Part shown: one piece after another, positions 20,657 through 57,589 of the stretch | Layout of the letters: the number at the start of each line of letters is the position of its first letter | Numbering within the stretch: the stretch's first letter is position 1 | Position numbers and translations under genes: made by a program | Assembly: GCA_963792585.1 (NCBI GenBank) | Contig: CAWBWI010000001.1 | Coordinates: 1,056,001-1,120,000, forward strand | Reading direction: 5' to 3' | Length of the DNA: 64,000 bases | Source of the DNA: Candidatus Eiseniibacteriota bacterium | GTDB taxonomy: Bacteria > Eisenbacteria > RBG-16-71-46 > CAIMUX01 > VGJL01 | Notes under the pieces: model-generated | What the model was told of the DNA's origin: nothing | The model's input: only the letters and a program-made list of their open reading frames with translations | The model's database searches: none

Positions 20657-22225
20657 ATGAACCACTGGCCGTGGGTTCTCATCACGATCTGTATCCCCCT
20701 TTCCCTGATCCTCCCTCCTTCGACGGTCTCCGCCCCTGCGCCCGAGTTCGTCTCGGCCTCCGCGCGGGAGCTCTCGGGAGACCATCTTGGAGCTGTCCAC
20801 GATTACGAGTCGTTCATCGCGCGCGCGCCGGCCGACCGTCTTGCGCCGGTCGCCGCGCTGGCGATCGCCGCGATCCAGATCTCCGGGGCAGCCGACTCGA
20901 CGGCCGGGCTCACTTGGCTCGACCGCGTATTGGCCGACTATCGGTCGAGCCCCGAGGCGCCGCGCGCCGCGCGGCAGAAGGGCGAGATCGCTGAAGCGCG
21001 CAGGAAGTGGGCGGACGCTGCGGAGGCCTATGCCGAGGCCCTCGAGCTTGGAGGAGGCGCCGGAGGAGCCGCATGGGTCAACGAGGTGGCCGGCGCGGGC
21101 GCCCGGTGCCACGAGCGCGCGGGACAGCCAATGAAGGCGCTCGAGACCTACCGCAAGCTTCTCGACGGAGATCCGCCGCCCGAGGTTGCGGCCAATGCCC
21201 ACTATCGAATCGGCGTGGTCGAGGAAGCGGCAGGAGATTCAACGGCGGCCGCCGAGAGTTACGCAAAGGTCCTCGCGGACTTCCCCTGCACCCCCTCGGC
21301 GGATCCGGTGTTCGCCAAGCGGGCGATGATCGACCGGCACGTCTCGATCGACTGGAAACCTCTCGACACCTATGCCGCCGGGACACGGATGGTCGGACAG
21401 CGGGACTGGGACGGCGCCCTGAGATCGTGCGAGGAGATTCTCGCCGGTCCCGAGGACTCCCCTCTTCATGAATGCGCCGAGTACCGCAAGATCACGATCC
21501 AGACCCTGCTTTCCGGCGACTATACGGAAGGATCCCGGCGGATGCGGGCTTTCCTGTCCGATCACGCGGGTGGGCAACGGACGGACATGGCGGAGACGAC
21601 GATCGCGCAAAGGTGGGCTCCGGCCGTGGCGTTGGAAGCGCGCGTGCGCGAGCATCCGGACGATCCGGTGGCGTTGCGGGCGCTCGGATTCTACATGCTG
21701 CAGATTCGTTCGGGCGTCAAGGCTCTCGAGATGATGGAGAAAGCCCGCGCGATCGATCCCGACAATCCCGAAACGCAGCTCGGGCTCGGCTATGCGTACT
21801 CCATGCACGGACGCTCCGAGGAGGCGGCGCGCGCATTCGACGCCTACCTGAAGGCGAACCCGGACGACATCGATTCCCTGAACATGATCGGATACAGCTA
21901 CCTTGCGATGGGCCAGGCGGAGCGGGCGATTCCCTACTTCGAACGCTATGCCTCCGTCGCCATGGACGATGCGAACGCGCACGACAGCCTGGGCGAGGGG
22001 TATTTCCGCGTGGGACGGCTCGCGGACGCCGCGCGCGAATACGAGAGGGCGGTCGCCTTGAATCCGGCGTTCTCGAACTCATTCTTCATGCTCGGTCAGG
22101 TCTACCAGCAGCTCGGCGAGGGGGCGAAGGCCGCCGCGGCCTACCGGCGCTTCCTCGACCTGAGCCCCGACGGCCCGCAGGCGGACGAGGCGCGCGCGGC
22201 GCTTCCCGCCCTGACGGCCGAGTGA
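20657..22225 (+). CDS. Exported tetratricopeptide-repeat protein
   Basis: Hydrophobic N-terminus; TPR helices such as AHDSLGEGYF..A..EYERAVALNP. Confidence 0.85.
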   Translation: MNHWPWVLITICIPLSLILPPSTVSAPAPEFVSASARELSGDHLGAVHDYESFIARAPADRLAPVAALAIAAIQISGAADSTAGLTWLDRVLADYRSSPEAPRAARQKGEIAEARRKWADAAEAYAEALELGGGAGGAAWVNEVAGAGARCHERAGQPMKALETYRKLLDGDPPPEVAANAHYRIGVVEEAAGDSTAAAESYAKVLADFPCTPSADPVFAKRAMIDRHVSIDWKPLDTYAAGTRMVGQRDWDGALRSCEEILAGPEDSPLHECAEYRKITIQTLLSGDYTEGSRRMRAFLSDHAGGQRTDMAETTIAQRWAPAVALEARVREHPDDPVALRALGFYMLQIRSGVKALEMMEKARAIDPDNPETQLGLGYAYSMHGRSEEAARAFDAYLKANPDDIDSLNMIGYSYLAMGQAERAIPYFERYASVAMDDANAHDSLGEGYFRVGRLADAAREYERAVALNPAFSNSFFMLGQVYQQLGEGAKAAAAYRRFLDLSPDGPQADEARAALPALTAE

Positions 22226-22250
22226 GCAACCCCGCCAGGAGGAAATCGGA

Positions 22251-23164
22251 ATGGAGATCGATGTCACACGACGCAGATTCTTGCGACACTCGGCCCTCTT
22301 CGGGGCGACCCTCGCGTCCGCGAGTCTGGCAGGCTCGCTCTTCCGGAGCGCCCGCGCGGACGAGGGGACGGCCGGCGTCGACTTGGCCGTGGCCAAGGGA
22401 GACTCGCCCGCGAAGAACGCGCTGGCCGCGGTTGCGGCGATCGGAGGATTCGCCAGGTTCGTCCACCCGGGTGACAAGGTCGTCATCAAGCCAAACCCGA
22501 TTGGAACCAGTCCCCCGGACCGTGCGCTGAACACGCATCCCGAGATGATCGAGGCGGTGATCCGCGAGTGCTTCCGCGCCGGGGCGCGGGAAGTCGTGGC
22601 GATCAGCCATGACGAACCCCGATCGATGGAGACCAACGGAACCAGCGGCGCCGTAGAGAGGGCGGCGGGGTGCTGCGGGCGCTGGGCACGATGGACCAAT
22701 TCCGAGAGGTCTTGGTGCCGCGCGGTCGCCTCCTCCGGCAAGTCCACATCGCCGCCGATATCATCGATGCCGACGTCTTCATCAACATGCCGATCGCCAA
22801 GCACCACGCCGGATCGCAGGTCACCGGCGCGATGAAGAATCTCATGGGGGTCAACTGGGATCGGAACTACTTCCATGCAACCGACCTCCAAAGGTGCATC
22901 GGGGAGCTCGCGACCGCGATCCCCCACTCGCTCGTCATCATGGATGCGAACCACGTGCTGCTCACGAACGGACCTTCGGGTCCGGGTGAGGTCCTGCGCG
23001 CGCGGCAGGTCATCGCCTCGGTCGATCCGGTCGCCGTCGACGCGTACGCGACGCGCTTCTTCGGCTTGGAGGCCGGGGAGGTCGGCCACATCCAGACCGC
23101 GTACGATCTCGGCGTCGGGGAGATCGACCTCGCGAAGCTGCGCGTTCAGGAAGTGGAGGTCTAG
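22251..23164 (+). CDS. DUF362-domain protein with Tat leader, indel near 22665
   Basis: TRRRFL leader; GDKVVIKPN, INMPIAKHH, TGAMKNLMG, DPVAVDAY. Confidence 0.85.
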
Positions 23165-23235
23165 AGGAGGGCGTTCGAACTCCGGGACGTCGGGTCTGGT
23201 AGCATGTGTAGGGGCCGCAGGGTGGAGGGGAAGCC

Positions 23236-26014
23236 GTGGACGTCCACAAGCTCGATTCGATCTTCAAGCCGCAGCGCATCGTCCTCTTCGGGGCAAGCGA
23301 GAATCCGAAGAGCGTCGGCTGCACGGTTCTTCGCAATCTCGTGGGCGCCGGTTTCCGGGGCGTCGTCTATCCGGTCCACCCGACGATCGAGGCGGTCCTC
23401 GGGATCCAGACCTACCCCGACGTCGCCGGACTCCCCCGCCGCCCCGACCTGGCCGTGATTTGCACCGCCGCCGGGCAGGTCCCCGGCATCGTCCGCGCGT
23501 GCGGCGAGGCGGGAATCCTCGGAATCGTGATCATCTCGGCCGGCTTCCGCGAGGTGGGTGAAGGGGGTCGGGCCCTCGAGGAAGCGGTCCGGACCGAGCA
23601 GCGGCGATTCGACGGCATGCGCATCATCGGCCCCAACTGCCTCGGAATCATCGTACCAGGGCTCATGCTGAACGCGAGCTTCGCCATCGGAACTCCCAAA
23701 GCCAGGCCATGTCGCGTTCATCTCGCAGTCGGGCGCGCTGTGCACCTCGGTGCTCGACTGGGCCATCGAGGAGAACATCGGCTTCTCCTACTTCGTGTCG
23801 ATCGGCAACATGCTCGACGTGGATTTCGGGGACCTGATCGACTACTTCGGCGAGGACGAACGGACCCGGTCGATCATCCTCTACATCGAGTCGCTCAACG
23901 ACGCGCGCAACTTCATGACCGCGACCCGCGCCTTCGCCCGGCACCAAGCCGATCGTCGCCTACAAGGCGGGACGCTTCGCCGAGTCGGCCCAGGCGGCCG
24001 CCTCGCACACCGGCGCGATGGCCGGCGAGGACGCCGTCTACGAGGCGGCTTTCGAGCGCGCGGGCATCGCCCGGGTCTTCGAGATCGGCGACATCTTCGA
24101 CTGCGCCGAGCTGGTCGCCCGCCACCAGCCGCCGCGCGGGGCGCGCCTGGCCATCGTCACCAACGCCGGCGGCCCGGGCGTGATGGCGACCGACGCGCTG
24201 ATCGCCCGCAAGGGGCGACTCGCGACCCTATCGCCGGCGACGATCGAGCAACTGAACGAGGCGCTGCCGCCCTCCTGGTCGCACGGCAATCCGGTCGACG
24301 TGCTCGGCGACGCGCGACCCGAAGCGCTTCGCGAAGGCGATCGAGATCGTGCTCGCCGACCCCGGCGTCGACGCGGTGCTCGTGATCCTCACGCCGCAGG
24401 CGATGACCAATCCGACCGTCGACGGCGAAGGCCGTGGGCGAGCTCGCGGCGGGCGCGTCCAAGCCGATCCTCGCCGCCTGGCTCGGGCGGCAAGAGCATG
24501 CGCGAGGGGATCGCCCTGCTGAACCAGGCCGGCATCGCGACCTACTCGACGCCGGAGCAGGCGGTGCGCGCCTTCATGACACTGGTGGCCTACGCGCGCA
24601 ACCTCGAGATGCTCTACGAGACGCCGCGCGACATCCCGGTCGCTCTTCACCCTCGACCGGCAGGAGATCCGGCGCGTCTTCGCTCGAGTTGCTCCCCAAG
24701 GAAGGCGACATCCTTCCGCGAATCCGTCTCCAAGGCGCTGCTCGACGCCTACGGCATCCCGGTCACCACGCCCGCGGGGCGCGCGATCCGCCGACGAGGC
24801 CGTCGACGCTCGCCGCCGAGAGTCGGCTATCCGGTCGTGCTGAAGATCCTCTCGCCCGACATCACCCACAAGACCGACGTCGGCGGGCGTCGCGCTCGAA
24901 CCTCGAGCGACGAGGCGGCGGTGCGGGACGCGTTCGAGCGAATCGTCACGACAGGCGCGCCGCGCAGCGACCCGACGCGCGCATCGACGGCGTCACCGTG
25001 CAGCGGATGGTCCGACGCGCGAGACGGCTTCGAGCTGATCCTCGGCGCGAAGAAGGACCCGATCTTCGGCACGGTGATCATGGTCGGCATGGGCGGCGTC
25101 GCGGCCGAGGTGTTCGGCGACCGGGCCCTCGGCTTGCCGCCGCTCAACGAGCGGCTGGCGCGCCGCATGCTCGAGTCGCTCGCAGTCGTGGCCGCTGCTG
25201 CAGGGTTACCGCGGCCGCCCGGGGTCAACATCGACCGGCTGATCGAGATCCTGATGCGCTTCTCGCTACCTCGTGGCCGACTACCCCGAGATCCGGGAGC
25301 TCGACGTCAATCCGCTGCTCGTCACGCCGGAGGACGTGAGTCGCCCTCGACGCCCGGGTCGTCGTCGACCGCGAGATCCTCGCGCGCGGTGCGCGGCCCT
25401 ACGCGCACCTGGCGCTCCGCCCGTATCCCGAGGAATACGTGACCGAGCTCGCGTTGAAGGACGGGACGGCGGTCGGACTGCGTCCGATCAAGCCCGAGGA
25501 CGAGCCGACTGTGGACGGAGCATGCTCTCCCGCTGCTCCCCGGAGACGATCTACGCCCGCTTCCGCTCCCTCTTCCAGTGGAGCACGCACGAGATCGCCA
25601 CCCGCTACTGCTTCATCGACTACGATCGCGAGATCGCGATCGTGGCCGAGGTGGAGGAGGGCGGCGTGCGCAAGCTCGCTCGGCGTCGGGCGGCTGGTCG
25701 CCGATCCGGACCACGAGACGGTCGAGTACGCGGTGCTCGTCGCCGATGCCTGGCAGAATCGCGGGCTCGGCGGGCTCCTCACCGACTACTGCTGCGAGAT
25801 CGCGAAGCACTGGGGCCTGAAGCGGATCGTGGCCGAGACCGCGCCGGACAACGCGCGGATGCTGGCCCTCTTCCGCAATCGCGGCTTCGAGATGAAGCAT
25901 GACGCCGAGGGGGACGTCGTCGAGGTCGAGAAGGAGCTGCCCGAGGCGGAAGCCTCGTCGGGCAGCCGATCGTTGAACGTCGGCCGGGACGGTGGTATTC
26001 TTGGCCCGGGTTGA
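23236..26014 (+). CDS. Acetate-CoA ligase-like plus GNAT protein (Pat/PatZ-type lysine acetyltransferase), multiply frameshifted
   Basis: [43 protein letters not shown]-terminal GNAT WQNRGLG. Confidence 0.88.
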
Positions 26015-26053
26015 TTCCACGATGCGCTTGGGTTGGGGGCAGAGGGAGGGAAT

Positions 26054-26618
26054 GTGAGCTACGCATCGATCGGCCGCCTGCGCGGCCAGGCGGTATTCTT
26101 CTTGTTGGCCGCATGGCTCGGCGCCGGCTGTGGTGGGGACTCAGGCCCCGACAGCCCTTCCGTCGTCCGCCATCCTCAGGACTTCCTCCCCCAGCAAGTC
26201 GGAAACATGATCCCGGCGGGGACCGCGCGAACCGCGACGACCGCGACCGAGCTGCAGGAGATCATCGACGGGGGCTACTCGACCTATACGAAACACGCCT
26301 TTCGCGAATTCGTGCAGCAAACCTATCAGGGCACGGTCGGGGGCACGGAGGCGGTCGTGGTCGTGTGGATCTTCGAGGTCGCGACTTCGGACGACGCCCA
26401 CGCCCTGCATTTGGATGAGGACGTTCGAGACCGGCAATTGCCAGGACCTGACGGGAATCGGCCAGGAAGAACGCCTGTGCCTCGGGCTCGGAAACAAAAC
26501 CCTGCAGATCCGCCGGGAGCAGTACTGGACCAGGATCACGATCGATGAAAGTTCCGCGGATGCCGAGGAGCTCCTGAAGCTCTTCGCCGCCCACGTCGAC
26601 CAGAAGATCACCGAGTAG
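26054..26618 (+). CDS. DUF6599-like lipoprotein, indel near 26430
   Basis: Lipobox LGAGC; ELQEIIDGGYSTY..HAF motif shared with 31841..32458. Confidence 0.65.
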
Positions 26619-26626
26619 GCCGATCA

Positions 26627-27556
26627 ATGGACCGGCGCCGGTTCCTGTGGTCGAGCCTTGGCCTTGTCGGGGCGAGAATCATCTATCCACGCACCGCACG
26701 CGCCGCCGACGAGATCGGGGCCGGCTCGTCGGACGACGGTTTTCCGGACATCGTGCGGGTCAAGGGGGAGGCGCGCGCGGCCACCCGCCGGGCGATCGAT
26801 GCCATCGGGGGCATGGAGCGCTTCGTGAAGCCCGGCCAGGTCGTCCTCGTCAAGCCCAACGCGGGATTCGACAGTCCGCCCGAGTGGGGCGCCAGCACGC
26901 ATCCAGAGGTGCTCGCCGGCGTGCTCGACGCGTGCATCGCCGCGCAGGCGCGCCGGATTCTCGTGGTCGACCACACGTTGGCCCCGTCTCAACGCTGCTT
27001 CCAGCGCACGGGACTGAATCGAGCGGTCGCCGACTATCCGACGGTTAAACTGGTCGCATTGGACGATCCGAAAACGTATGTCGAAACGCCGATCCCCCTC
27101 GGTCAGGCCCTGAAGACCACACAGGTCGCCGCCGTGGTCGGCAAGGTGGACGTCTTCATCAACGTCCCGACGGCGAAGGCCCACTCCGCGACCGAGGTGA
27201 GCCTCGGGCTCAAGAACCTGATGGGCCTGGTGTGGGATCGACATGTCTTCCATCAGGGGATGGATCTTCACGTCGGGATTGCCGATCTCGCGACGGTTCT
27301 GCGCCCCCACCTCACGATCCTGGATGCGATCCACATCCTGAAGACGGGAGGCCCTACCGGCCCCGGCGAAGTGGAGGAAGCGAACGTCGTCATTGCGGGC
27401 GTCGATCCCGTGGCCGTCGATGCGGTCGGCGTCGGTCTTTCGACCTGGAATCGAGAGACGCTCACGCCCGATGCAGTTGGATACATCCGGCATGCGGCCG
27501 CCCGCGGCCTGGGATCGATGCGCTTGGATACACTGCGGATCGTGGACCTCACCTAG
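26627..27556 (+). CDS. DUF362-domain protein with Tat leader
   Basis: DRRRFL leader; GQVVLVKPN, INVPTAKAH, LGLKNLMG, DPVAVDA. Confidence 0.9.
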   Translation: MDRRRFLWSSLGLVGARIIYPRTARAADEIGAGSSDDGFPDIVRVKGEARAATRRAIDAIGGMERFVKPGQVVLVKPNAGFDSPPEWGASTHPEVLAGVLDACIAAQARRILVVDHTLAPSQRCFQRTGLNRAVADYPTVKLVALDDPKTYVETPIPLGQALKTTQVAAVVGKVDVFINVPTAKAHSATEVSLGLKNLMGLVWDRHVFHQGMDLHVGIADLATVLRPHLTILDAIHILKTGGPTGPGEVEEANVVIAGVDPVAVDAVGVGLSTWNRETLTPDAVGYIRHAAARGLGSMRLDTLRIVDLT

Positions 27557-27563
27557 GATCGCA

Positions 27564-30500
27564 ATGGGTCGCCTGATCGAGGCCGCCCTTCATCTCCTGC
27601 TCCTGACTGCGGGCGGCGTGGGTGAAGCGGCCCATGCCGCTGCGGCCCCTGAGCCCTTCGCCGCGACCCGCGCCGAGGATCTTCGTCCCCGGATCGCCCT
27701 GTCCGATGGTCGGCTTTTGTTGCTCACCCCGGAGGCCCTCTACCGATTCCAGCCGGAATCCGAGGCTTGGACGGTGACGACGTCAGCGGATCATCTGCCC
27801 GAACCTCCCCTGGTCAACCTCTCGGCAACGTCCAAGAGCATCTGGATCGCGGGGACGGGCGCCGCCTTCTCGGATCCCCGGTACGACGACTGGCAGGGGT
27901 ACTCGACTGCCGACGGCCTCCCCGGCCGGGAGGTCTTGAGCGTCGAAACCGACGATGATTACGCATACGCCGCTACGGATGCGGGCGCCGGACGATTCGA
28001 CATGTACACGCTCGAGTGGGAGGCGCTGACCACCGCCTCCGGCGAGCGCCTCGGGGCGATCTCCGACGTTGCGCTGGGTGAGGACCGCGTCTGGTTCGCG
28101 CTCGCCTTCGGGGTCGCCGAGTACCAGAAGGACACCGAGACGTGGCGGGTCGACCGCCAGCTCGGCCAGATCACGGCACCTCGCGTCCTGGCGCTTCGTC
28201 AAACCACCCGATTCCTCTGGGCCCTCACGGAGACGGGACTCGCCCGCTACGAAAAGTCGCTCCGGACTTGGACGAGCTACCCGGTCGGCACCGATCTACC
28301 GGATGCCCGCGTGCGCCAGTTCACGCTGCAGGGTGACGATGTCTGGTTGGGCACAGACGCGGGCCTCTGGCGCTACGGCACGGAGACGGGGATGTGGCGC
28401 CGCGACGAGTCGTCGACCACGATGCCCGGCTCTTCCGTCCTCGCATTCGCTCTCGAAACCGGCCGCATCTGGGTTGCGACCGAATCTGCATTTGCTCAGT
28501 ACGACCTGGAAGCCTCCCGCTGGACCGAGTTCACGGCCGGCGTGTCCGTGCCCCCCTCGGAGGCCGTCGCGATCACCCGGGCCGGCGACATCCTGATGAT
28601 CCTCGGATCGAACGGGATTGCCTACGGCCTGGCGCAGGGGCACACGAATCCGAATCTCTTCACCTGGAGGAGCCGCCCCGTGCTCCGCGCGCGGACGGCC
28701 CGAGCGGAGACGCGTGGGTGGCACACGGTCCTCGATGAGAGTGGACTGGGTCTCGCCTCCGATTCCGGAGAGGCCGTAACGGTCAAGGGTGGCGCGACCG
28801 TCTACATCGACAACGGCGCCGGACACATCGGCAGCGGAATCGGCGCGCTTCACAGCGACACCCGCTACGATCTCACGCTCAACGGTCGTCTCGACAAGGA
28901 GCGCACGTTGAGCGGGTTCTACAACTCGACGGACCCGGAAAACTCCGCCTACCAGTTGACGTTCCGCGGCGCCAGGTCGGATGCCCTGAGATCCCTCAGC
29001 CTCGGAGAGATCGAGGTCCAACCTTACAACGCCAGGCTCACACCCGGAACGGGGCTCAAGGGCGGGCAGATCCGCCTGGAGAAGGGGGAGCGCTCCGAGG
29101 AAACGCATCGGCGCCTCGTCACCGTCGATGGTTGGGTGGGGCGACGCCGCACCCTCCCGGGTCGGGACACCTTCGTCGGGGGCAGTTCCCAGGTGGAGGG
29201 CGAGGTTCGGGACGTCGACTACGTGAAGGGTCAGGTCTTCCCCATTCCGGACGGATGGTCAGCGACCGACCTCGCGAGCGCCCTCCTGTACGTCGACGAC
29301 GGAGACCCAGCCACGGACGATGCGAACACGCGCCATGGTGAGATCGCCGGTCGCCCAGGCGATTGGGATCTGCTGAAACGGAATCGAGACTACGTTCTCG
29401 GACCGAGCGGACGGTCATTGATCCTGAACGAGCCGCTTCACGCGGGACAGGCGCTTGCCGTCGCCGGCAGGGACCTACCGGAGTTGCAGGCGGACCTGAC
29501 CCATCTGCCCCTGCGAAATCACTACGCAATCGGGGGCGAGCCCGTGGCAGGTTCGATGCGCCTGGCAATCATCGACCGAGAGGGATCCGATCGGGACGAG
29601 ACCGGGGACACCTACCTGCACCGCTTCGGCCTGGATCCCGCAGGGAACGGTCAGATCGCGCCGGAGCGTATCAGCGCGATTACCGGCCTGTTGAGCTTCC
29701 CCGACACCCTCCCCTTTCCGTCCGAGGTCTATGGAACTGACCCCGTTCACCTCTACACGATCCAGTTCGCCTATCGCGCGTCGGTCCACACGTTTCGCCT
29801 GAGCCACGCGAACGTCGTCCCCGGCTCGGAGCGGATCACGGTGGACCGGGAACCGCTCCGGCCGGATATCGACTACTCGATCATTCCGTCCTCGGGGCTG
29901 TTCATCTTCTTCGAGACCGTCCTGCTCGACGAAGACAGCGCCATCGAGATCCGCTACGAGTACGAGACCGAGGGCGGGCCAGACGAGCCGATCGTCTCCG
30001 CCGGCCAGGTCGGCCTCGCGCCGACGGACCACCTCTTCGTCGGGGCCAACGTCATACGATCCGGAAGCGGGAGCGAAGGGACGACGACCGCCGACGTGAG
30101 CAGCCGTCTGGAGTGGAAGAACGAGAGTCACTTCCTCCGGCTCGTGCCGGAACTCGCCTGGAGCCGTGAGGATCGCGAGTCCGTGTCGGGGTCGGCGAGC
30201 GGGATCGCGATGCAGGGGCGCTTCCGCAAGCTCGAAGTCGCCGCCTCCCAGCGATCTCTCGGAAAGACGTTTACCTCGTTCGAGGACCGAAGCACGATTG
30301 CCGGCCGTTTGCGCGAGGAGGCGAACGGATGGGGTCGTGTCGACCTCGGACATGATCTTCAGGCGGAGGTGGATTGGCGGCGGGCGCTCTCCGATTCCCC
30401 TGGAGGAGCGGGGGTTCGAGCCCTGGGAGAGGAGTCCTCCCTCTCCGGAAAGGTCCGGCTCCTCCGGGGAGGATTGCCGAATCTGGAAGTCCGTCGTGGG

Positions 30501-31742
30501 CGCGTCCTCCTGGACGCGGAGGATGCGCGAAGCGAGAAGTGGATCACACGCGCCGACCTCGAGATCAGCCCCGATCAGGCCGGGTTTGCGCCCCTGGGCA
30601 TCCGGCGGCTCTGGCTGAGAACCTTCTTTCAGCGCAGCGATCGTCGCTACGACGCCACAGGCGGCGTCCCGACCGACTCCACCCGGGACAGGGTCACGGA
30701 TCATGCATTCGCGCGGCTCAACGGATCGGTGGGCTCTCCCCTGTCCTGGAACATCGCCTTCGAGGATCGATCGACGAAGCAGTCCAGAGACCAGGGGAAC
30801 GCCCGGCTCCGGCGATTCCAGAAGCTGGACGCCAGCCTTCAGTCGCAACCACATCCAAGTGTGGACACGTTCCTGCGATGGGAGGCGGATCGAGATCTCG
30901 CTTGGATCCCCTCCGGGGGAAACGGAGGCTTCCGCACGCGGCGCCTCTTCCAGTCGACCTCCTACCTCTACCCGGGTCGGATCACCACGCGTCTCGCCCC
31001 TCTCTCCTTTCGGCTCGATCTGAGCCGGGATGGTTCGGCGGACGGCGAGCCGGGAATCCGAATGCCGGGAGCGAGCAGCCTCTGGAGCGAACCCGCGCGG
31101 AACTCGCGCCGGCAGAATCTCCACAATCGGATCGTCGAAGGTCGGCTCCAGATCACGCCGGCCCTGCGCATCGTCGAGAGGTGGGAAGACGAGGCATCGC
31201 GATTCGACCGCGAGGGGCTTGCCAACGACTCCGACGGCCGTCGGCTGGAGCACCGCTTCGAGCTTCGCATTTCCGGCGGCTGGATCAACCTGAGGGCGAT
31301 CACGGGTCGATCCAGCGGAGATGATCTGCCCACCACGAGGCAGGAGCGGCTCTTCGGCGAGTGGGAGCAGACGTGGCGCGGCGGATGGCTCACCTATCTC
31401 GCTCTCGACGGCGAACGATCTTGGGATCGCGATCGGGCGGTGGAGGCGCGCAGCCAGGCTTTCGGCCCGCAGGCCCGCCTGACCTGGCGCCAAGCGCGGT
31501 GGCAAACGGATGCGGGCTTGGGCGCCTCGCTCGACTGGACCCGCACGTGGGATGCGTCCGTCGGCGCCACCAGTCCGTGGTCGGAAAGCCGAAGACAAAC
31601 GTTGACCACAACGCTTAGCCTGCAACCCTTCAAGCTCTTCTCGATCAAGGCCCTCTACGAACTGAACCGCTCCCGGAGCCCCTCCGGGGCGAACTGGCGC
31701 GCGGGACAGAACCTGCGCATCCGGCTCCTCGTCCGGACGTGA
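27564..31742 (+). CDS. Large outer-membrane protein: N-terminal beta-propeller repeats, SprA-like motifs and C-terminal beta-barrel
   Basis: Signal peptide MGRLIEAAL..AAHA; propeller repeats (VWLGTDAGL, DGLP); SprA-like RDYVLGPSGRSLILN, LRNHY, YLHRFGLD, GLLSFPDTLPF, SERITVD..DY..G; alternating amphipathic strands to the C-terminus. Confidence 0.75.
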   Translation: MGRLIEAALHLLLLTAGGVGEAAHAAAAPEPFAATRAEDLRPRIALSDGRLLLLTPEALYRFQPESEAWTVTTSADHLPEPPLVNLSATSKSIWIAGTGAAFSDPRYDDWQGYSTADGLPGREVLSVETDDDYAYAATDAGAGRFDMYTLEWEALTTASGERLGAISDVALGEDRVWFALAFGVAEYQKDTETWRVDRQLGQITAPRVLALRQTTRFLWALTETGLARYEKSLRTWTSYPVGTDLPDARVRQFTLQGDDVWLGTDAGLWRYGTETGMWRRDESSTTMPGSSVLAFALETGRIWVATESAFAQYDLEASRWTEFTAGVSVPPSEAVAITRAGDILMILGSNGIAYGLAQGHTNPNLFTWRSRPVLRARTARAETRGWHTVLDESGLGLASDSGEAVTVKGGATVYIDNGAGHIGSGIGALHSDTRYDLTLNGRLDKERTLSGFYNSTDPENSAYQLTFRGARSDALRSLSLGEIEVQPYNARLTPGTGLKGGQIRLEKGERSEETHRRLVTVDGWVGRRRTLPGRDTFVGGSSQVEGEVRDVDYVKGQVFPIPDGWSATDLASALLYVDDGDPATDDANTRHGEIAGRPGDWDLLKRNRDYVLGPSGRSLILNEPLHAGQALAVAGRDLPELQADLTHLPLRNHYAIGGEPVAGSMRLAIIDREGSDRDETGDTYLHRFGLDPAGNGQIAPERISAITGLLSFPDTLPFPSEVYGTDPVHLYTIQFAYRASVHTFRLSHANVVPGSERITVDREPLRPDIDYSIIPSSGLFIFFETVLLDEDSAIEIRYEYETEGGPDEPIVSAGQVGLAPTDHLFVGANVIRSGSGSEGTTTADVSSRLEWKNESHFLRLVPELAWSREDRESVSGSASGIAMQGRFRKLEVAASQRSLGKTFTSFEDRSTIAGRLREEANGWGRVDLGHDLQAEVDWRRALSDSPGGAGVRALGEESSLSGKVRLLRGGLPNLEVRRGRVLLDAEDARSEKWITRADLEISPDQAGFAPLGIRRLWLRTFFQRSDRRYDATGGVPTDSTRDRVTDHAFARLNGSVGSPLSWNIAFEDRSTKQSRDQGNARLRRFQKLDASLQSQPHPSVDTFLRWEADRDLAWIPSGGNGGFRTRRLFQSTSYLYPGRITTRLAPLSFRLDLSRDGSADGEPGIRMPGASSLWSEPARNSRRQNLHNRIVEGRLQITPALRIVERWEDEASRFDREGLANDSDGRRLEHRFELRISGGWINLRAITGRSSGDDLPTTRQERLFGEWEQTWRGGWLTYLALDGERSWDRDRAVEARSQAFGPQARLTWRQARWQTDAGLGASLDWTRTWDASVGATSPWSESRRQTLTTTLSLQPFKLFSIKALYELNRSRSPSGANWRAGQNLRIRLLVRT

Positions 31743-31840
31743 CCATCGGGTCATCATCGTGGGTGCGCGCCCTTGTGAAATCAGGTACAATTGTCCCACG
31801 TGTGTTGTCGATCCGTGATCCTTCACATCGGGAGGGCTGT

Positions 31841-32458
31841 ATGAGCCGCACCGCCGGACGTTGGGCCGTTCCGGCACTGTTCGCTTTCGCGCTTCTCACG
31901 TTGATCATCGCCACTCCTGCGGCGGCAACCTGTGAGACCGTCGATCCCCTCTTCATGCTCCCCTCAGACGCCGACTGCGCAGGCTGGGCGCGCGACGGCG
32001 ACCCGCGCACGGCCTACACCTACGAGGAGCTGACACAGATCATCGACGGAGGCGCGGGGCTCTACGTGGAGTATGGATTCGTTGCCGCGGCCTTCCAGAA
32101 CTACCTCGGTGACGTCGCCGGCGCGTTCGTCCCGGCAACCGTCAGCCTGTTCAATCAGGGCACCGCAGAGAACGCTCAGGCGTTGTTCGACGACCCGAAC
32201 AGCGGGATGGGCGAGCCCATCGAAGACTGGACGGGCACCGGCGAGGCGCGCATGCGCGTTGCCTTTGGAATCACCACGCTTCAGTTCCGGGAGGAGTGCT
32301 TCTTTGGCTCGATCGTCGTGATGAGTGAGGATCCGGCTGCCGTCGGCGCGGCCGACTGCCTCGCCCTGAGCATCGTCACAAATATCCAAGGGGCCGTGCC
32401 CACGCAACCGGTTTCCTGGGGCACGATCCGCTGGGCGTTCATGGGGAGGTCGCGATGA
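31841..32458 (+). CDS. DUF6599-like secreted protein with SWG-type tail
   Basis: Signal peptide; YEELTQIIDGGAGLYVEYGF; ends VPTQPVSWGTIRWAFMGRSR. Confidence 0.75.
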   Translation: MSRTAGRWAVPALFAFALLTLIIATPAAATCETVDPLFMLPSDADCAGWARDGDPRTAYTYEELTQIIDGGAGLYVEYGFVAAAFQNYLGDVAGAFVPATVSLFNQGTAENAQALFDDPNSGMGEPIEDWTGTGEARMRVAFGITTLQFREECFFGSIVVMSEDPAAVGAADCLALSIVTNIQGAVPTQPVSWGTIRWAFMGRSR

Positions 32459-33879
32459 GGGATCCGGGGCAGGGTCGCTTCCCTCGAGCAAGCCTGGGAG
32501 ATTGGATCACGCGCAGACGCTTTCTGGGTGGGACGGTCGCGGGCGTGTCGGGTCTCGTCGCGGCGTCTCTGACTCGATCCGGTCTCGCACGAGCGGACTC
32601 GCGGGCGGTCAAGATCGTTCGCACCTATCACCCCAACGCGACGACCGGCTGGACAACGGTCAACCAGGGACCGGTGGACATGATGGTTCACGCCGCCATA
32701 CGGGAACTTACCGGCATCGGCGACACCGCCATGGCCTGGAGGTCTCTCTTCCCCGGCATCACCCCCGAGAAGTTCGTCAGCATCAAGATCAACCTGGCAT
32801 GCGGAGACGTGCCCACACATCCCCAGATCGTCAATTCGATCATCGACGGACTTCTCATGATGAACCTCGACGGCGGCCCGATCCCCGAGAACCACATCAT
32901 CGTCTGGGACAACGACAACGCCTTCTTCTGCGCCCAGACCGGATACCAGGTGAACTACGGGGGTTCCGGAGTCCAGTATTTCGGAACGGACCACGCCGGC
33001 GTCGGATTCGACATGAGTCGCGTCTTCTCGATCAGCCATCCGCACAACTCGACGACCTCCCACCACCCAAGCCGCATCATCACGCAGATGTCCGACTACA
33101 TGATCAACGTCGGCGTGATCAAAGATCACAGCGAGGCCGGCGTCACCCTCACGCTGAAGAATCACTATGGCTCGTTCGACGGGGTTGCCGTCAGCCAGAT
33201 GCACGTGAGCGGCTACTACGGGGATGGGCATAGCAGAGGGGAGCCGGAGTTGAACCGGGTCCTGCGAGATTCGCTGGGCGATAAGACAAAGCTCTGGCTG
33301 ATCGACTCCACCTTCGGCCTCTACAACGGCGGGCCGGGATACACCCCCCCGTACCACACACCCCCGAACTGGAGATACAACAGCCTGCTCGCGGGTCTGG
33401 AACCTGTCGCGATCGATCGCGTCGGCACGATGAAGATCAACGAGGAGCGGATCCGCAACGGCCTGGCGGCGCTCGACCCGAGCCATATCCGCGCGGCCGC
33501 GCAGCCGCCCTACAGCCTCGGGACCGACGACCCGCTGGATATCAACCTCGTCGAGATCGACGCCTCGCTCGCGGCCGATACGTTCGAGCCGGAACAGCTC
33601 GGCCCCGCCGGGCTGCTGGCGGCATACCCCAATCCAACTCGGGGAGCCTGCACCCTGCGGGTCGAATGCCGGGAGCTCGTCGGCGTACGGATCTCAATCG
33701 TGAGTGCGGCGGGAGCGATTGTCCGCGACGTTGCGACTACGGACCTCACGCCCGGCGTCCACCGGATCCGTTGGGACGGAAGGGATCAACGCGGCCACGC
33801 TGTGGCCGCAGGCACCTATTTCTGTCGACTCACTGCCGCTGGGGCGTCGCATAGGATCCGAATCACCGTGGTCAGTTGA
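32455..33879 (+). CDS. Tat-leader DUF362 protein with FlgD-Ig C-terminal domain
   Basis: TRRRFL; IKIN, IKDH..TLTLKNHYG; AYPNP..WDGRDQRG..AGTYF. Confidence 0.85.
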   Translation: MRDPGQGRFPRASLGDWITRRRFLGGTVAGVSGLVAASLTRSGLARADSRAVKIVRTYHPNATTGWTTVNQGPVDMMVHAAIRELTGIGDTAMAWRSLFPGITPEKFVSIKINLACGDVPTHPQIVNSIIDGLLMMNLDGGPIPENHIIVWDNDNAFFCAQTGYQVNYGGSGVQYFGTDHAGVGFDMSRVFSISHPHNSTTSHHPSRIITQMSDYMINVGVIKDHSEAGVTLTLKNHYGSFDGVAVSQMHVSGYYGDGHSRGEPELNRVLRDSLGDKTKLWLIDSTFGLYNGGPGYTPPYHTPPNWRYNSLLAGLEPVAIDRVGTMKINEERIRNGLAALDPSHIRAAAQPPYSLGTDDPLDINLVEIDASLAADTFEPEQLGPAGLLAAYPNPTRGACTLRVECRELVGVRISIVSAAGAIVRDVATTDLTPGVHRIRWDGRDQRGHAVAAGTYFCRLTAAGASHRIRITVVS

Positions 33880-33918
33880 GACGCGCGCCGGAGCGCGAAT
33901 TTCAGGGAGGAACAGGCA

Positions 33919-35295
33919 ATGGACCATCCGACGAAGCCCGGGCCCAAGACGCTGAGGGCGCGTGACGAATCGTTGCATCCGGGCAGGCGCGCGTTTCTCA
34001 AGGCGTCGAGCCTCGCCGCCATCGCGGCGACCGGCGTCCCGGCCATGGAATGGCTGACTCCTCTTCCCGTCCATGCGGAGGGGATTCGTGGAAACGGCAT
34101 GCCCGGACGCATCGTGATCCTCCATGAGCCGGCCATGGGCGGTCACCTCGCCATGATCAACAAGGTCCGGGTCGCGATCACGGTCCACCAAGGGATTCGG
34201 CTCCTGACCGGACAGGCCACGACCGCCGCCGCTTACGAGTCCCTGTTCCCCGGACTGACGGCGAGCTCGAAGATCGCGATCAAGGTCAACTGCATCGGAC
34301 CAACGGACACGCGGTGGGAGACGGCTCGGGCCGTTGTCGAGGGGCTCTCGATGATGCTCGGCGGGACCTACAACGTGGCCAATGTCACGGTCTACGACAA
34401 TCAGGATATCTTCGGACATGGCTACAGCACGGCTGAGTTCACATTCAACGGCCACGCAGCCATCCTCAGCTCTTCGAACAATCCGGGAAGCTACTACGTC
34501 TACCAGTCGTACCGCTTGTCGAACTACCTACTGAACGCCAACTACGTCGTCGACATCCCCGCCATCAAGAGCCACAACGACGGCAACAACCAGATCACGG
34601 TGGCACTGAAGAACCACTACGGGTCGTGCAGTCCCTCGAGCCTCTGCGGGAACATCACCGGCATGTTGACCGTCAACGCGGATGCGAACATCAAGAACAA
34701 GACCTGCCTCGTGATCACGGACGCGATCAGGGGCACGTATACGGGTGATCCGGGCCAGCCTCCACAGCTCTGGAACACATTCACGGAGCAAACGCCCAAC
34801 AGCCTCTTCTTCGGCACCGATCCGATCACCAACGATTACTGGGCGCGCGACATGATCAACGACGAGCGGCAGACGCATGGCTGGTCCGCCAAGCCGTGTC
34901 CATGGATCGAGCAGGGCTCCGGCGCTCCCTACAGCCTGGGAGTCAGCGACCCGGCGCAGATGACCGTTCTCCGGTACGAGGCATCCGATGTCGAGGAGCC
35001 GTCGGGCGCAGTTGGAGACACGACCTTCTTCGCCCCCAACGTTCCGAATCCCTTCGGCGAGTCGACGACCATCCGATTCCGGATGGGTCGGGCCGGTTCG
35101 GCGTCGCTGCAGATCGTGGCCGCCGACGGCCGGATGATTCGGGATCTTGGCCGGCGGGATCGGCCCGCGGGTTCCGCGGAGCTCTCCTGGGACCGGCGAA
35201 ACGACCACGGGCAACGCGTTGCTGCCGGGGTCTACTTCGCGAGACTCCAGACGGCGAATCGAATGCTCACCCATCGGATGGTGGTCATCGACTGA
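33919..35295 (+). CDS. Tat-leader DUF362 protein with FlgD-Ig C-terminal domain
   Basis: GRRAFLK; IKVN, IKSH..VALKNHYG; NVPNPF..WDRRNDHG..AGVYFARL. Confidence 0.85.
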   Translation: MDHPTKPGPKTLRARDESLHPGRRAFLKASSLAAIAATGVPAMEWLTPLPVHAEGIRGNGMPGRIVILHEPAMGGHLAMINKVRVAITVHQGIRLLTGQATTAAAYESLFPGLTASSKIAIKVNCIGPTDTRWETARAVVEGLSMMLGGTYNVANVTVYDNQDIFGHGYSTAEFTFNGHAAILSSSNNPGSYYVYQSYRLSNYLLNANYVVDIPAIKSHNDGNNQITVALKNHYGSCSPSSLCGNITGMLTVNADANIKNKTCLVITDAIRGTYTGDPGQPPQLWNTFTEQTPNSLFFGTDPITNDYWARDMINDERQTHGWSAKPCPWIEQGSGAPYSLGVSDPAQMTVLRYEASDVEEPSGAVGDTTFFAPNVPNPFGESTTIRFRMGRAGSASLQIVAADGRMIRDLGRRDRPAGSAELSWDRRNDHGQRVAAGVYFARLQTANRMLTHRMVVID

Positions 35296-35322
35296 CGGGG
35301 TCCGCGGCCGATAGACAGGGAG

Positions 35323-36498
35323 TCAGCGGACGATCACGATGCGCTGTTCGCTGCGTTCGGTTCCGACACGAACCCGGCACCAGTACGATCCGTTGGCGAC
35401 GGCTTGGCCGTGGAGGTCGCGGGCATCCCAAATGAGATCCTGCACGCCCGCCAGAACAAATTGCGGCGGGCTCCGCCAGACAATCCGCCCCCCCGCGTCC
35501 AGCACCTCGCACGTCGCGCGTACGCCCGCCTCGGGCGCTGATATCGGAATCGCGATCTCCCCGCGCGACGGATTCGGCGTGACGCGGCCGATCCGGATGC
35601 CGGGCGCGGGCGCGGCGACCCCGCTCGTGGGCCCGGCCGTGACGGCCAGCAGCACCGGCGCCTGCCCAGGGACGAGGACGGCGAGTGTCCGCGCGGGCAC
35701 CGTGGTCCACCCCTCCGGCTCGGATCCCAACGCCTGCGACGCGGCGATCCAGTACGGGGAAGGCGACAGCCCCGCCGGATAGAAGCGGACGGGATCCAGC
35801 TCATCGCCCGTCGCCTGGCGGAGGACGAAGAGGGTGTCCCCCGAGGCGAGGACGAAGTTGAGACGCGTTTGCGTCAACATCGAAAGTTCGTAGACGGCAT
35901 GGCGTAGCGCATCGGCACGCGACTCCTCGGGGTGCCGGTGGCCGTACTGCAGCAGATAGAGGAAGTAAAGTTCCGAATCGATGTAGGTGCTGTCGTAGTC
36001 GGGCGGATTGTTGAGCAGGTAGTCGGGGTCGTCCGCCGTCAGCAATGCGACCATCAGCGAGTCGCTCATCCTGCCGTTGTGGGCAAAGAGGATCCCCTCG
36101 CGCTGGAACGGATGGGGATCGGGAACCCCGCAATGGCTGATTGTGCACTTGCGTACATGGGCGATGGCGACGCGGGGCCGAATCGTCTCGAGTTCATCCA
36201 CGGCAAGGCCGAAATCGAGGATCCCGGGATGATTGGCCGGCGAGCCGCCCCGCCGCACGATCGGCCGATTGAGGGCGTGGGGCTCGGTGTCGTTGTGGAC
36301 GAAGGCGATCCCCCACCCATCGCGGTGGGTGTTACTCAGTTGTCGCAGGTTCGTCGGAGTCCCTTCGCGCAGTTGATCGACGATCATGTTCACGGGATAC
36401 CCGTCGCCCACGAGGCCCCAGAAGCGACACGCATCCGCAGGGCCGCCGGCGGCGGCAACGGCGGTGAGGAGGACGCACAGGAGGCAGGCAATCCGCAT
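35323..36498 (-). CDS. Secreted class II glutamine amidotransferase (Ntn hydrolase, YafJ/EgtC-like) with FlgD-Ig domain
   Basis: Signal peptide ending ADA directly before CRFWG; DGWG, AHVRK, HPF, FAHNG, DSE; TPNP..WDARD..G..NGSY. Confidence 0.85.
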   Translation of the reverse strand: MRIACLLCVLLTAVAAAGGPADACRFWGLVGDGYPVNMIVDQLREGTPTNLRQLSNTHRDGWGIAFVHNDTEPHALNRPIVRRGGSPANHPGILDFGLAVDELETIRPRVAIAHVRKCTISHCGVPDPHPFQREGILFAHNGRMSDSLMVALLTADDPDYLLNNPPDYDSTYIDSELYFLYLLQYGHRHPEESRADALRHAVYELSMLTQTRLNFVLASGDTLFVLRQATGDELDPVRFYPAGLSPSPYWIAASQALGSEPEGWTTVPARTLAVLVPGQAPVLLAVTAGPTSGVAAPAPGIRIGRVTPNPSRGEIAIPISAPEAGVRATCEVLDAGGRIVWRSPPQFVLAGVQDLIWDARDLHGQAVANGSYWCRVRVGTERSEQRIVIVR

Positions 36499-36572
36499 TC
36501 GGGTTCCCTTTCCTCGGGACTCCTGGAGTCCATCTTCGGCCGGAAGGCGCCGATGCGGGTCCATGCCCGAAC

Positions 36573-38555
36573 CTATCGAATGACGAGAATCGGCCGCGCG
36601 AGAATTCTCGTGTGCGTCTGCGCCCGGACGAAGTATACCCCCGAGGCGAGCGGGCGCGCCCCGTCATCCCGCAGATCCCACACGACTTCCGTCACACCGA
36701 GGGGAAGGGGACTCGTGGAGAGTCTGCGGACGAGCCGGCCACCCCCGTCGAGGATCTCGATGGCGCCCCCCGATTCCATGGAGAGCCGGAGATTGATGAA
36801 CGCGGTCTCGCGGCATGGGTTCGGGTGAACGCTGAGATCGTCCGCGAAAGATCTCGCGGGGCTCTCTGCGACCTCCATGACGTCCGAGCAGCTCTGCCCG
36901 AGCGCGTCGCGAACAATGTCGACGTCCGTGTCCCCAACCAGCCCCGACCCGTCGAGGTCCGCACAGAAATCGGTCGTGCCGAGTCGCGACTCGACGTAGG
37001 CGACATCGTTGTCACGAACGGCGCAGTCGCCGTCCACATCGGGCGACTTCACCCCGGCCCACCCGATCTCCGCATAGAATCCGTACTCGCACATCGCCAC
37101 CACCGAGCCCGCTTGGGAGCACCCACCACCGCGCAAGGCAAACGACGCCTCCCCCAGTGCATTGGTGTTCCGTTCGACTCGGGGATGCTCCTGGAGCGGA
37201 TCCCAGTGGATCGCGGCATCCAGGGCGGGGCTGAAATCCAACATGAGCGGGCGATTCGCGAATGGGTTGCCGTTGCAGGTATCTTCGAATCGCAAGAGGT
37301 TCGACGGAACGCCACCCGGCGCGACGATGATCGAGGGCGGCCCGGTGACCTGGGCCGACGAGCAGCCGAGGATGCTCCCCCGGCGGGACACGAGAGCGGC
37401 CATGCCACCGGCATCCTCCACCCAGAGCTGCATGAGACCCGCCGCCGGGCTGCCCTCGATGGCGCCCATCACCGCGTGCGTCAGGCCGTTCCTTGGCAGG
37501 AGATCCTCTCCCGCAGGGATACTGCAGTAGGGCCGCATCACGGTTCGATGCTCCACGGCGCCCGGCGCGACCTCATCCGACCAGGTGATGAAGTCGATGG
37601 GGTGCGGTCCACCCCACCCGCAGTAGGAAGAGCTGAATGCAAAGGCCGCCGCGCTGGGGCGGACCGACGGGACCCCGTCATCGGCGGAGATGCGCTCGAT
37701 CACGCCGCCGTAGCAGTCGACCACCCATGTCTCCGTCGACCCGCCGGGATTGGTTCCTTCGAAAGCGATGAACGGAGCGTCATCCATGGCGTCGCCGCAG
37801 CACTCCTCGGAACGAAGCGAAGGACGCCTGCAGGCGATCGGTAGATTCGTCATCCGCTGCTCCGAATCCCACGAGGAGCCGAGGAAGCCGTTTCTCAGGT
37901 AGATCTCGGGGTCTCCGTGGCGGAAATCGGCCCATGCGACCATGACTCTCGAGACAAAGGACTGAATCGATACGGACGGCTCAAGGGCAACGCCGGTGGC
38001 CGGCGAGATCGCCTCCGCGGTCCGCCACGAGCCCGAGTGGAAGGAGCGTCCCCAGATCCGCACACCCGTCTCCGAGCTGTCGGCCCAGGCCGCATAGGCG
38101 ATATCGTAACCCGCGGCGATCACAGGACCGTGTGAGGCATCGCCGGCGCAGCTGAGGCATTCCTCTTGGTTCCAGGAGGATCCGTTGAACTGTCGCGTCC
38201 AGACTTCCGGCTGCCCGCTCCGTGAGTCCTCCCACACGACGATGAGAGATGCGTCCGTGGCGTCGAGATGCGGAGCCGTCTGCAGGCCGGGGTCCGTTGT
38301 GAGCCGAACCTGGGCATTCCATCCGCCCGCGCCGCGGGAGCGGCAGTAGATATCCCCATATTTCTCGTAGACCACCCACCACTGCCCCTGCCATGAGACC
38401 ACGGAGACGCCGGTGCTCGAGGACGGGTAGGCGACGTCCTCGTCGACCATCTCCGCCGCTTGCCAGGTGAGATCGGGGATCTCGGCGCGGGAGGAAGTAC
38501 CGGCGGCAACCAGAATCGCGAAGGCTAAGAGCGCGGGGAAGAGGATGCGACCCAT
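36573..38555 (-). CDS. Secreted propeller-like protein with dockerin-like Ca-binding pair and FlgD-Ig domain
   Basis: Signal peptide; VVWEDSR/VAWADFR repeats; DVDGD..D and DLDGSG.V...D pair; HPNP..WDLRDDG..SGVYF. Confidence 0.8.
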   Translation of the reverse strand: MGRILFPALLAFAILVAAGTSSRAEIPDLTWQAAEMVDEDVAYPSSSTGVSVVSWQGQWWVVYEKYGDIYCRSRGAGGWNAQVRLTTDPGLQTAPHLDATDASLIVVWEDSRSGQPEVWTRQFNGSSWNQEECLSCAGDASHGPVIAAGYDIAYAAWADSSETGVRIWGRSFHSGSWRTAEAISPATGVALEPSVSIQSFVSRVMVAWADFRHGDPEIYLRNGFLGSSWDSEQRMTNLPIACRRPSLRSEECCGDAMDDAPFIAFEGTNPGGSTETWVVDCYGGVIERISADDGVPSVRPSAAAFAFSSSYCGWGGPHPIDFITWSDEVAPGAVEHRTVMRPYCSIPAGEDLLPRNGLTHAVMGAIEGSPAAGLMQLWVEDAGGMAALVSRRGSILGCSSAQVTGPPSIIVAPGGVPSNLLRFEDTCNGNPFANRPLMLDFSPALDAAIHWDPLQEHPRVERNTNALGEASFALRGGGCSQAGSVVAMCEYGFYAEIGWAGVKSPDVDGDCAVRDNDVAYVESRLGTTDFCADLDGSGLVGDTDVDIVRDALGQSCSDVMEVAESPARSFADDLSVHPNPCRETAFINLRLSMESGGAIEILDGGGRLVRRLSTSPLPLGVTEVVWDLRDDGARPLASGVYFVRAQTHTRILARPILVIR

Positions 38556-48249: not shown

Positions 48250-48254
48250 GCCCT

Positions 48255-51784: not shown

Positions 51785-51879
51785 CGACACCCTCCCTGCG
51801 TTGACCGTCCGTCCGTCCGCGGATAGAATCCGCGCGAGTTCACATGCGGCCCTATCGGCCGCGGGCAGGAGATCCCCTC

Positions 51880-54050: not shown

Positions 54051-54088
54051 GATCGCGCAGGAGGGGAAGGAAGGGAGGGGTGGCTTCC

Positions 54089-55168: not shown

Positions 55169-55200
55169 GGTTGGGGACGGGCGGGGGTAAGGAGAACGGC

Positions 55201-56322: not shown

Positions 56323-56642
56323 GCGGGAAACTGATCAGCGAGCCGATTCGACCGATCGCGGGAAGTTTCGACCCGGAGGCAATGAGCCGAGGGGAACCGG
56401 GGCTTCCCGCGGGGTTTGTCTGGCGGGATCGGGAGTGCCGCATCATCCGCGTCGTGCGGCGGTGGAAGCAACTGGGACCGGAGGCCGGCAGCAAGGAAGT
56501 GTACCTCCGGCGCCACTACGCGGAGACGGTCATGGACGACGGGACGACCTGGGTCATCTACTGCCTCAGGCAACCCCACGGGCCGGGAGGAACCGGAGGG
56601 CGGTGGTTCCTCTATTCGGTGGAAACCGGCCCCAATCCATAG
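56319..56642 (+). CDS. Small DUF6504-like protein, possible CTG start
   Basis: ISEPI..MSRGEPGLP..FVWR..YLRRHY..W.LY pattern; AAGGAGG upstream. Confidence 0.6.
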   Translation: MSGKLISEPIRPIAGSFDPEAMSRGEPGLPAGFVWRDRECRIIRVVRRWKQLGPEAGSKEVYLRRHYAETVMDDGTTWVIYCLRQPHGPGGTGGRWFLYSVETGPNP

Positions 56643-56681
56643 GATTGCGGCCGGGGTGACGGCCGGCCCGCGAGCCCGACC

Positions 56682-57391: not shown

Positions 57392-57589
57392 GCATTCCCT
57401 CCCCTCGCGTTGCTATGCACAACCGCCTGGGAAGGTAGGACGGGCGCGCCCTGGCTGTCAACCGAGGCGGCCCGGTCACACGGGGCCGCAAGCGCCGTTT
57501 GTCACGGCGCCACCGCAGTACTTGCGGACAGCCCAGATGGTTCGCGCTGCGCGCGCGGGTCCGATGGATCCCGGGGATCGTGCGCCGCC

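Follow-up and report, generated by a model that had tools for sequence, protein, structure and literature searches.

SprA (Sov), the outer-membrane translocon of the type IX protein-secretion system (T9SS), is described as transporting folded proteins while alternating between PorV and Plug (PMC9251779, PMC10202324); the tail of the cargo binds PorV loops and the barrel wall, Plug seals the periplasmic end (PMC10994853, PMC9251779), and a cap closes the barrel on its outer side (PMC10202324). Here we describe a locus of Candidatus Eiseniibacteriota, found in a 64,000-nucleotide window (the whole stretch of DNA analysed, contig CAWBWI010000001.1, positions 1,056,001 to 1,120,000), that joins a barrel of this type to proteins of the DUF362 family, probable metal enzymes, and of the DUF6599 family. 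The gene at 27564-31742 encodes a compact SprA relative, distinct from SprA itself, and it belongs to a unit of six genes inherited together in the genomes examined. Coordinates are those of the window; the prefixes C, G, L and P label contigs, genomes, loci and proteins elsewhere, and G000 is the source genome (84% complete).

The open reading frame (ORF) at 27564-31742 (+), 1392 amino acids (aa), contains all of the motifs that an earlier note, made from the letters alone, had listed for it. It has no Pfam match, SprA_N included, and its sole NCBIfam match is to the SprA model TIGR04189 (residues 731-801, 17.8 bits vs a cut-off of 200). PDB sequence searches with the protein and with its profile yield no SprA match, and the barrel-family profile gives no alignment to the C-terminal 1103 aa of the source genome's own SprA. 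The N-terminal propeller proposed in the note holds up, as residues ~31-361 weakly match the propellers of two-component regulators (sensor kinases; PDB 4a2l/3ott, E ~1e-3), and relatives of the protein match Reg_prop and PorZ propeller models. The fold is seen in a structure model of residues 375-1392 (1018 residues, propeller region outside the model, mean pLDDT 81.5). Foldseek places four SprA chains at ranks 1-4 (E 5e-22 to 2e-14, TMq 0.50-0.60), with Deinococcus SlpA-type barrels next (E 1.7e-8). VIA aligns 830-920 of the 1018 residues onto the SprA chain range 102/132-2401 (for 6H3I, Z 18.4, root-mean-square deviation 7.0, 830 aligned residues), while porins reach a similar Z but with just ~240-320 residues aligned. 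The DSSP list of the model contains 36 long strands, a predicted count. A TonB receptor or LptD, with 22 or 26 strands, is ruled out by that number and by matches to BtuB and LptD with E of at least 3e-5 and TMq of at most 0.21. The resemblance to SprA suggested in the note is thus borne out at the level of the predicted fold, and so is the claim that the protein is shortened, the barrel having ~1000 residues against ~2270 in SprA. We file it as an SprA variant rather than a member, because the fold is SprA-like but the family models and the N-terminal feature fail. Strands 3 and 4 of the model, with 8 and 7 residues, are short and at most suggest a lateral opening of the SprA type.

Co-inheritance was examined in 151 genomes of the phylum, among them the unpublished G015, which is the sole basis of no claim; the close relatives that carry names are Ca. 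Eisenbacteria. The barrel has matches in 31 genomes, 12 strong (E <= 4e-92) and 19 weak, and the 12 strong ones are called carriers below. The family of DUF362 proteins with T9SS-type tails (E <= 1e-10) is found in exactly these 12 genomes of the 151, each with both of its types, c and d. The untailed DUF362 family matches 20 of 151 genomes at 1e-45, with the 12 carriers at E <= 5e-87 and the best non-carrier at 7e-55. All 12 carriers have two strong DUF6599-like genes, by a profile that contains the carriers' own sequences; in an order-level sample 13 of 31 genomes have DUF6599-like matches, with G072 and G103 as the additional ones (the barrel search did not cover G151-G153). Type d lies on a different contig from the barrel in 9 of the 11 other carriers, so co-inheritance is not a matter of linkage alone, and the second DUF6599-like gene adjoins type c in 10 of the 11. 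Presence is patchy, with carriers making up 2/5, 1/10 and 7/12 of genomes within families and 1/4 within one genus. Among the 13 close loci with upstream DNA, the DUF6599-like lipoprotein and the untailed DUF362 directly precede the barrel in 11, the lipoprotein only in one, and neither in one.

The family reaches well beyond these genomes. A profile search found 401 proteins at E <= 0.001, of which the best 150 are listed; four of 20 clusters looked up are named by taxon, as Ca. Latescibacter, Ca. Coatesbacteria and, twice, Bacteroidota. The non-Bacteroidota setting given in the earlier note does not hold for the whole family, since the sources of two members label them Bacteroidota. Scanning metagenomes yielded 44 loci; 33 of them were examined, and 27 of these belong to the propeller family. 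All 13 propeller-family loci with at least 5 kb upstream keep a tailed DUF362, a DUF6599 and an untailed DUF362 gene beside the barrel, 12 of them upstream in that order and one downstream; several are near-copies, so fewer than 13 are independent. A gene for a 4Fe-4S membrane protein is present in 8 of the 13 (and beside the barrel in 0 of 15 close loci). The operon is kept at ~25-30% identity. Other distant loci with short upstream DNA end before the module could show. The linkage of DUF362, DUF6599 and tailed genes noted in the window is conserved in homologs of the barrel, near and far, so that neither outcome named in the note as refuting it, an unrelated fold or a lack of synteny, came about. 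A separate group of longer SprA-like proteins lacks the propeller (1550-2080 aa; P0109, P0115, P0133 and others; L090-L094) and shares the N-terminal strands and the insert described below; five loci of these longer relatives hold no DUF362 or DUF6599. Open frames of 1120-1280 aa that match the SprA model at positions ~604-652 only are possibly a third SprA-like paralog family (candidate sites G011:C18:53293, G044:C17:22785, G057:C2:102633, G076:C133:18928, G080:C56:4002 and G105:C1:167171).

Loop lengths suggest an orientation for the barrel. Across 11 orthologs, variation amounts to 160 residues after odd-numbered strands and 1 after even-numbered strands, as expected for outer loops and periplasmic turns, which would put the insert on the outer face and the propeller on the periplasmic side. 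The outer loops comprise one 281-residue insert after strand 7 and 131 residues in all others, so that SprA's cap is for the most part gone. Three of the 11 other carriers, and further relatives as well, lack about 200 residues of the insert; a tree of 87 chosen rows built with FastTree requires three or more such losses. In it all 55 rows with a propeller separate from the 32 longer rows without one (support 100), and the propeller is present in all full-length members examined.

The earlier note had drawn its locus from 20657 to 38555; conservation narrows it to 26033-35295, and six genes are the unit: the barrel, the DUF6599-like lipoprotein, the untailed DUF362 with twin-arginine translocation (Tat) signal, the DUF6599 with TWG tail, and the two tailed Tat-DUF362 proteins (Table 1). 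Both DUF6599-like genes named there (31739-32458 and the lipoprotein gene 26033-26618) stand. The four DUF362 paralogs are all on the plus strand, at 22251-23164, 26627, 32455 and 33919, and all encode twin-arginine motifs, but the first, 22251-23164 (+), is broken by a frameshift and is not a member of the unit. Four FlgD-Ig tails were found at 32455-38555 as claimed (35.3, 25.5, 22.7 and 26.5 bits; cut-off 27), although the last two genes, 35323-36564 (-) and 36573-38555 (-), lie on the minus strand. By TIGR04183 (cut-off 23) the gene at 33919 scores 27.1 bits and that at 32455 scores 22.1; a model of the 33919 protein (pLDDT 69.7) matches PorZ and PorU tails in Foldseek.

Table 1. Coordinates of the unit, of the parts of its barrel protein, and of unlinked twin-arginine proteins with T9SS tails elsewhere in the source genome
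Feature	Position	Strand	Remarks
DUF6599-like lipoprotein, lipobox LGAG-C	26033..26618	+	frameshift at 26427, start codon uncertain; orthologs directly upstream of barrel in 12/13 close loci
Untailed Tat-DUF362, predicted periplasmic, 309 aa	26627..27556	+	invariant KPN, K-x-H, K-N, H, GGP-GPG
Propeller-fused SprA-type outer-membrane barrel, predicted, 1392 aa	27564..31742	+	fold match
N-terminal beta-propeller region, aa ~31-361, probably periplasmic	27654..28646	+	weak sequence matches, loop topology
Barrel strands 1-7, aa 404-528	28773..29147	+	structure model
Outward-facing insert after strand 7, aa 529-809, with SprA-like motifs	29148..29990	+	aa ~546-743 deleted in several orthologs
Barrel strands 8-36, aa 810-1391	29991..31736	+	structure model
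DUF6599-like protein with signal peptide and TWG-type tail	31841..32458	+	likely start ATG 31841 after GGAGG; ORF opens 31739
Tat-DUF362 with FlgD-Ig/T9SS-type tail, type c	32455..33879	+	profile matches
Tat-DUF362 with FlgD-Ig/T9SS-type tail, type d	33919..35295	+	profile matches; tail fold like PorZ/PorU tails
Plausible unlinked twin-arginine plus T9SS-tail proteins	G000 C3:1301872-1302825, C3:530124-531704, C3:976436-977929		

The TPR gene, the acyl-CoA ligase/GNAT, the first DUF362, MgsA, the GATase-tail gene and the gene at 36573 were rejected as members, being unconserved beside the barrel in 15 ortholog loci: by tblastn against these close loci the TPR gene, ligase, GNAT and MgsA have no match, the two minus-strand tailed genes match through their tails alone, and the first DUF362 matches as a paralog only. 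The assembly has many indels, also at 22251-26014; they split the lipoprotein gene as well as those of the acyl-CoA ligase and the first DUF362. Promoter and terminator scans of the locus stayed at chance level. A TACAAT hexamer (31775-31810), uncalled by the consensus scan, lies upstream of the likely start at 31841 and might mark a promoter that serves the exported genes separately. In RNA-library contigs of relatives the module and its flanks are equally covered, with no expression shown. Elsewhere in the window, a 1291-aa ORF and two neighbours (47742-51617 (-), 52620-55252 (-), 57697-60009 (-)) have no Pfam match; a 770-aa ORF among the minus-strand genes of 47742-60009 has a C-terminal HNH match.

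The DUF6599-like 31739-32458 product matches Pfam DUF6599 at E 0.0019, under the cut-off, and the lipoprotein has no Pfam match of its own, although its orthologs match DUF6599 with up to 40 bits. Its gene carries one extra base at 26427; in 2 of 4 runs the contigs of near relatives lack that base, which makes an intact lipoprotein and an assembly error probable. The exported partner bears a FlgD-Ig tail in L069 (4096-5403) and L074 (16612-17706), and a TWG tail in the window (31841-32458). Because this partner has a T9SS-type tail in other lineages, the common TWG tail may itself be an export signal.

The DUF362 family shares Pfam clan CL0471 with the LarA family DUF2088 (PMC11770544). In the untailed DUF362 protein Lys76-Pro-Asn, Lys184, His186, Lys196 and His209 are invariant and no Cys is; the tailed types retain the Lys/Asn, the Lys, the Lys-Asn and mostly the His. 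LarA's His174 is catalytic and its Lys184 binds the cofactor (PMC7583248). By sequence DUF362 finds no LarA match in PDB, shallow DUF362 profiles give no significant hhalign alignment to LarA homologs, and deeper profiles align weakly with LarA over 147 columns (P 0.045, probability 1.2%), with His186/Lys196 in register with His174/Lys184. The comparison also took in Asp72, Arg75, His108, His200 and Lys298 of LarA: in the weak alignment the place of its D-x-x-R (Asp72, Arg75) holds K-P-N in DUF362, while His209, 13 residues after Lys196 and invariant in the untailed type, falls outside the aligned stretch. LarA is absent among the Foldseek matches listed for the 33919 model, where the tail domain dominates, and an Atlas search with DUF362 gave no match outside DUF362. 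LarC is found in the source genome; LarE is not over the cut-off in that incomplete assembly and is present in 10 of the 11 other carriers. LarE does not discriminate carriers, since 124 of the 151 genomes have it, G015 included. Nickel-pincer binding by DUF362 is thus a lead, judged from sequence to be possible but the less probable outcome. One family of the phylum, f4 (G057, G076, G080, G092, G105, G111, G112 and others), has LarE in 12/12 genomes and LarA in 0/12, and so may have another user of the nickel-pincer cofactor; aldo-keto reductase homologs are one known alternative user (PMC13524815). Exported-type DUF362 proteins without an Ig tail also occur (L069:2925-4103, L071:4061-5239, L074:17779-18819), two with a short different tail and one with a lipobox-like Cys after the twin arginines.

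The source genome also encodes a general export machinery. A separate full-size SprA of ~2050 codons lies at C4:15482-21700 (-), frameshifted into several frames (also L049), and eight PorV-family genes over the cut-off, PorU and TatC are encoded. The search of the genome for a canonical T9SS proposed in the note thus succeeded for SprA and the PorV family and failed for GldM, GldN and GldL, with the controls silent as well. Tails by themselves are common here: our own models count 294 ORFs with a tail and 107 with a TWG tail in this genome, and among random 7-kb windows 37% contain one tail and 0.5% four.

The best single reading, because of the strict pairing with Tat-exported tailed proteins, is that the barrel acts as an additional export channel dedicated to the tailed DUF362 enzymes, a reading suggested by sequence and structure model to which we give a little less than an even chance. 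Under it, the DUF362 proteins would fold and load a cofactor, possibly of nickel-pincer type, in the cytoplasm and then be carried over the inner membrane by Tat. The lipoprotein would remain periplasmic together with the untailed DUF362, and the two would deliver or mature the cargo, with the 4Fe-4S membrane protein assisting the periplasmic step in some lineages. The propeller might gate the periplasmic mouth and select cargo, replacing SprA's separate Plug. The cargo, meaning the tailed DUF362 proteins together with their TWG-tailed DUF6599 partner, would then traverse the pore to the surface, probably using a PorV that also serves the general system. A lumen of 36 strands is suited to folded proteins.

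A number of points weigh against this reading. A full-size SprA is over the cut-off in 10 of the 11 other carriers, and the tails of the two tailed DUF362 proteins fall at the 47th and 63rd percentiles among 292 others; being ordinary for the genome, they could be exported by the general SprA. The RRxF motif is found in 7 of the 294 tailed ORFs, and three plausible Tat-plus-tail proteins lie elsewhere in the genome. GldM was not found in the source genome, nor GldN or GldL in any of the 12 carriers, with silent controls and GldK not searched. Tailed DUF362 genes lie beside the barrel in 6 of 15 close loci vs 11 of 13 for the non-cargo pair. The 12 carriers are related to one another and do not count as independent cases; in G072 two DUF6599-like genes occur without a barrel match; and L072 (11.6 kb, 3.1 kb of it upstream) has no module gene beside its barrel. 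The reduced cap and repeated insert loss fit an open-ended barrel, not a sealed lid with a side exit. The note's proposal of a dedicated translocon for neighbouring cargo thus keeps its SprA homology, its propeller fusion and its linkage, and its functional part is still to be put conditionally, given the ordinary tails, the full-size SprA and nearest neighbours that are not cargo.

The main rival reading is a standing conduit that exports no protein. It would hold, or form a bridge between, two DUF362/DUF6599 pairs, one placed on the surface by the general T9SS and the other periplasmic, and so let substrate, hydride or electrons cross the outer membrane towards a 4Fe-4S membrane protein. MtrAB-MtrC is a porin-cytochrome conduit, and proteins of NapH/MauN/NosR type are 4Fe-4S membrane partners of periplasmic metalloenzymes. 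We regard a conduit as a tentative but serious alternative. It would account for the mirror pairs on the two sides of the outer membrane (lipoprotein with untailed DUF362; TWG-DUF6599 by type c in 10 of 11 other carriers), for the ordinary tails alongside a full-size SprA, for the operon's 4Fe-4S membrane gene at 8 of the 13 distant loci and for the repeated loss of the cap, and the weak in-register match between His/Lys of DUF362 and the catalytic His and cofactor Lys of LarA points the same way. Against it, that match alone is not significant, the 15 close loci have no 4Fe-4S membrane gene beside the barrel, the untailed DUF362 lacks conserved cysteines for an electron wire, and protein export is the sole characterised role of the SprA-type fold. 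A fuller version, which we consider unlikely, is a T9SS translocon rebuilt as a trans-envelope enzyme conduit, in which the propeller-gated 36-strand barrel would join a surface nickel-pincer-type DUF362 to its periplasmic twin and, in some phyla, to the 4Fe-4S membrane protein, for hydride or electron transfer without cytochromes.

It is improbable that the barrel serves tailed proteins of every kind as a general back-up translocon and that its DUF362 linkage is historical. The hundreds of tailed and TWG-tailed ORFs, the unrelated tailed genes often found downstream of the barrel, and G130 (92% complete), which has the barrel and no full-size SprA match, would suit such a role, but the exact overlap with two DUF362 subfamilies in 151 genomes, even where unlinked, and an operon unchanged at ~25-30% identity speak against it. 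Least probable of all is a propeller-gated importer, in which a released DUF362 would capture cofactor or bulky substrate outside for delivery through the pore to its periplasmic counterpart: homologous proteins of binding type both outside and inside, conservation of His/Lys in the pocket and a gate-like propeller in all full-length members examined would fit, but TonB-dependent receptors match the model far worse than SprA does, the Tat signals suggest proteins that exit already loaded, and known small-molecule importers need a far smaller lumen than one of 36 strands.

Genome-wide co-inheritance of the six genes, the loop topology, the repeated insert loss and the ordinary tails were examined here. 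The literature searched (subscription papers and supplements outside its scope) has no description of the propeller-fused SprA-type family, and the literature matches listed make no mention of DUF6599. In each cell SprA is known as a single large translocon of general use, and a dedicated compact paralog, if this is what the barrel is, would show that a 36-strand barrel can specialise; the compact barrel is also a natural minimal version for asking what purpose the cap, Plug and motor serve. DUF362 and DUF6599 also acquire a concrete setting, as probable pairs on either side of the outer membrane, with possible nickel-pincer chemistry.

Set beside known systems, the locus recalls the porin-cytochrome conduit MtrAB-MtrC (PDB 6R2Q) in combining a barrel with redox-type proteins on both sides and, in those 8 of 13 distant loci, a polyferredoxin membrane gene; however, the model matches MtrB weakly (E 1e-5, TMq 0.22) and the DUF362 system has no heme proteins, so this is a working analogy only. 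The DUF362 proteins resemble LarA in an invariant His and Lys ten residues apart, in register with His174/Lys184 in the weak profile alignment, and in the presence of LarC in the genome and of LarE in most other carriers. They differ in having K-P-N for LarA's D-x-x-R, in being shorter, in carrying twin-arginine signals and export tails, and in having no significant sequence or Foldseek match to LarA. The closest likeness is to SprA/Sov: a single-chain barrel, predicted to have 36 strands, that aligns along its whole length, motifs common to both in the insert that follows strand 7, a host genome with a PorV family, PorU and hundreds of tailed proteins, and candidate cargo with T9SS-type tails. 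Where the N terminus of SprA is bound by SkpA/SprE (PMC10994853), this protein has a propeller; its barrel has ~1000 residues vs ~2270 with the outer cap mostly absent; and, far below the family cut-off and patchy in occurrence (12 of 151 genomes), the compact barrel stands beside a full-size SprA and is tied to one Tat-exported module.

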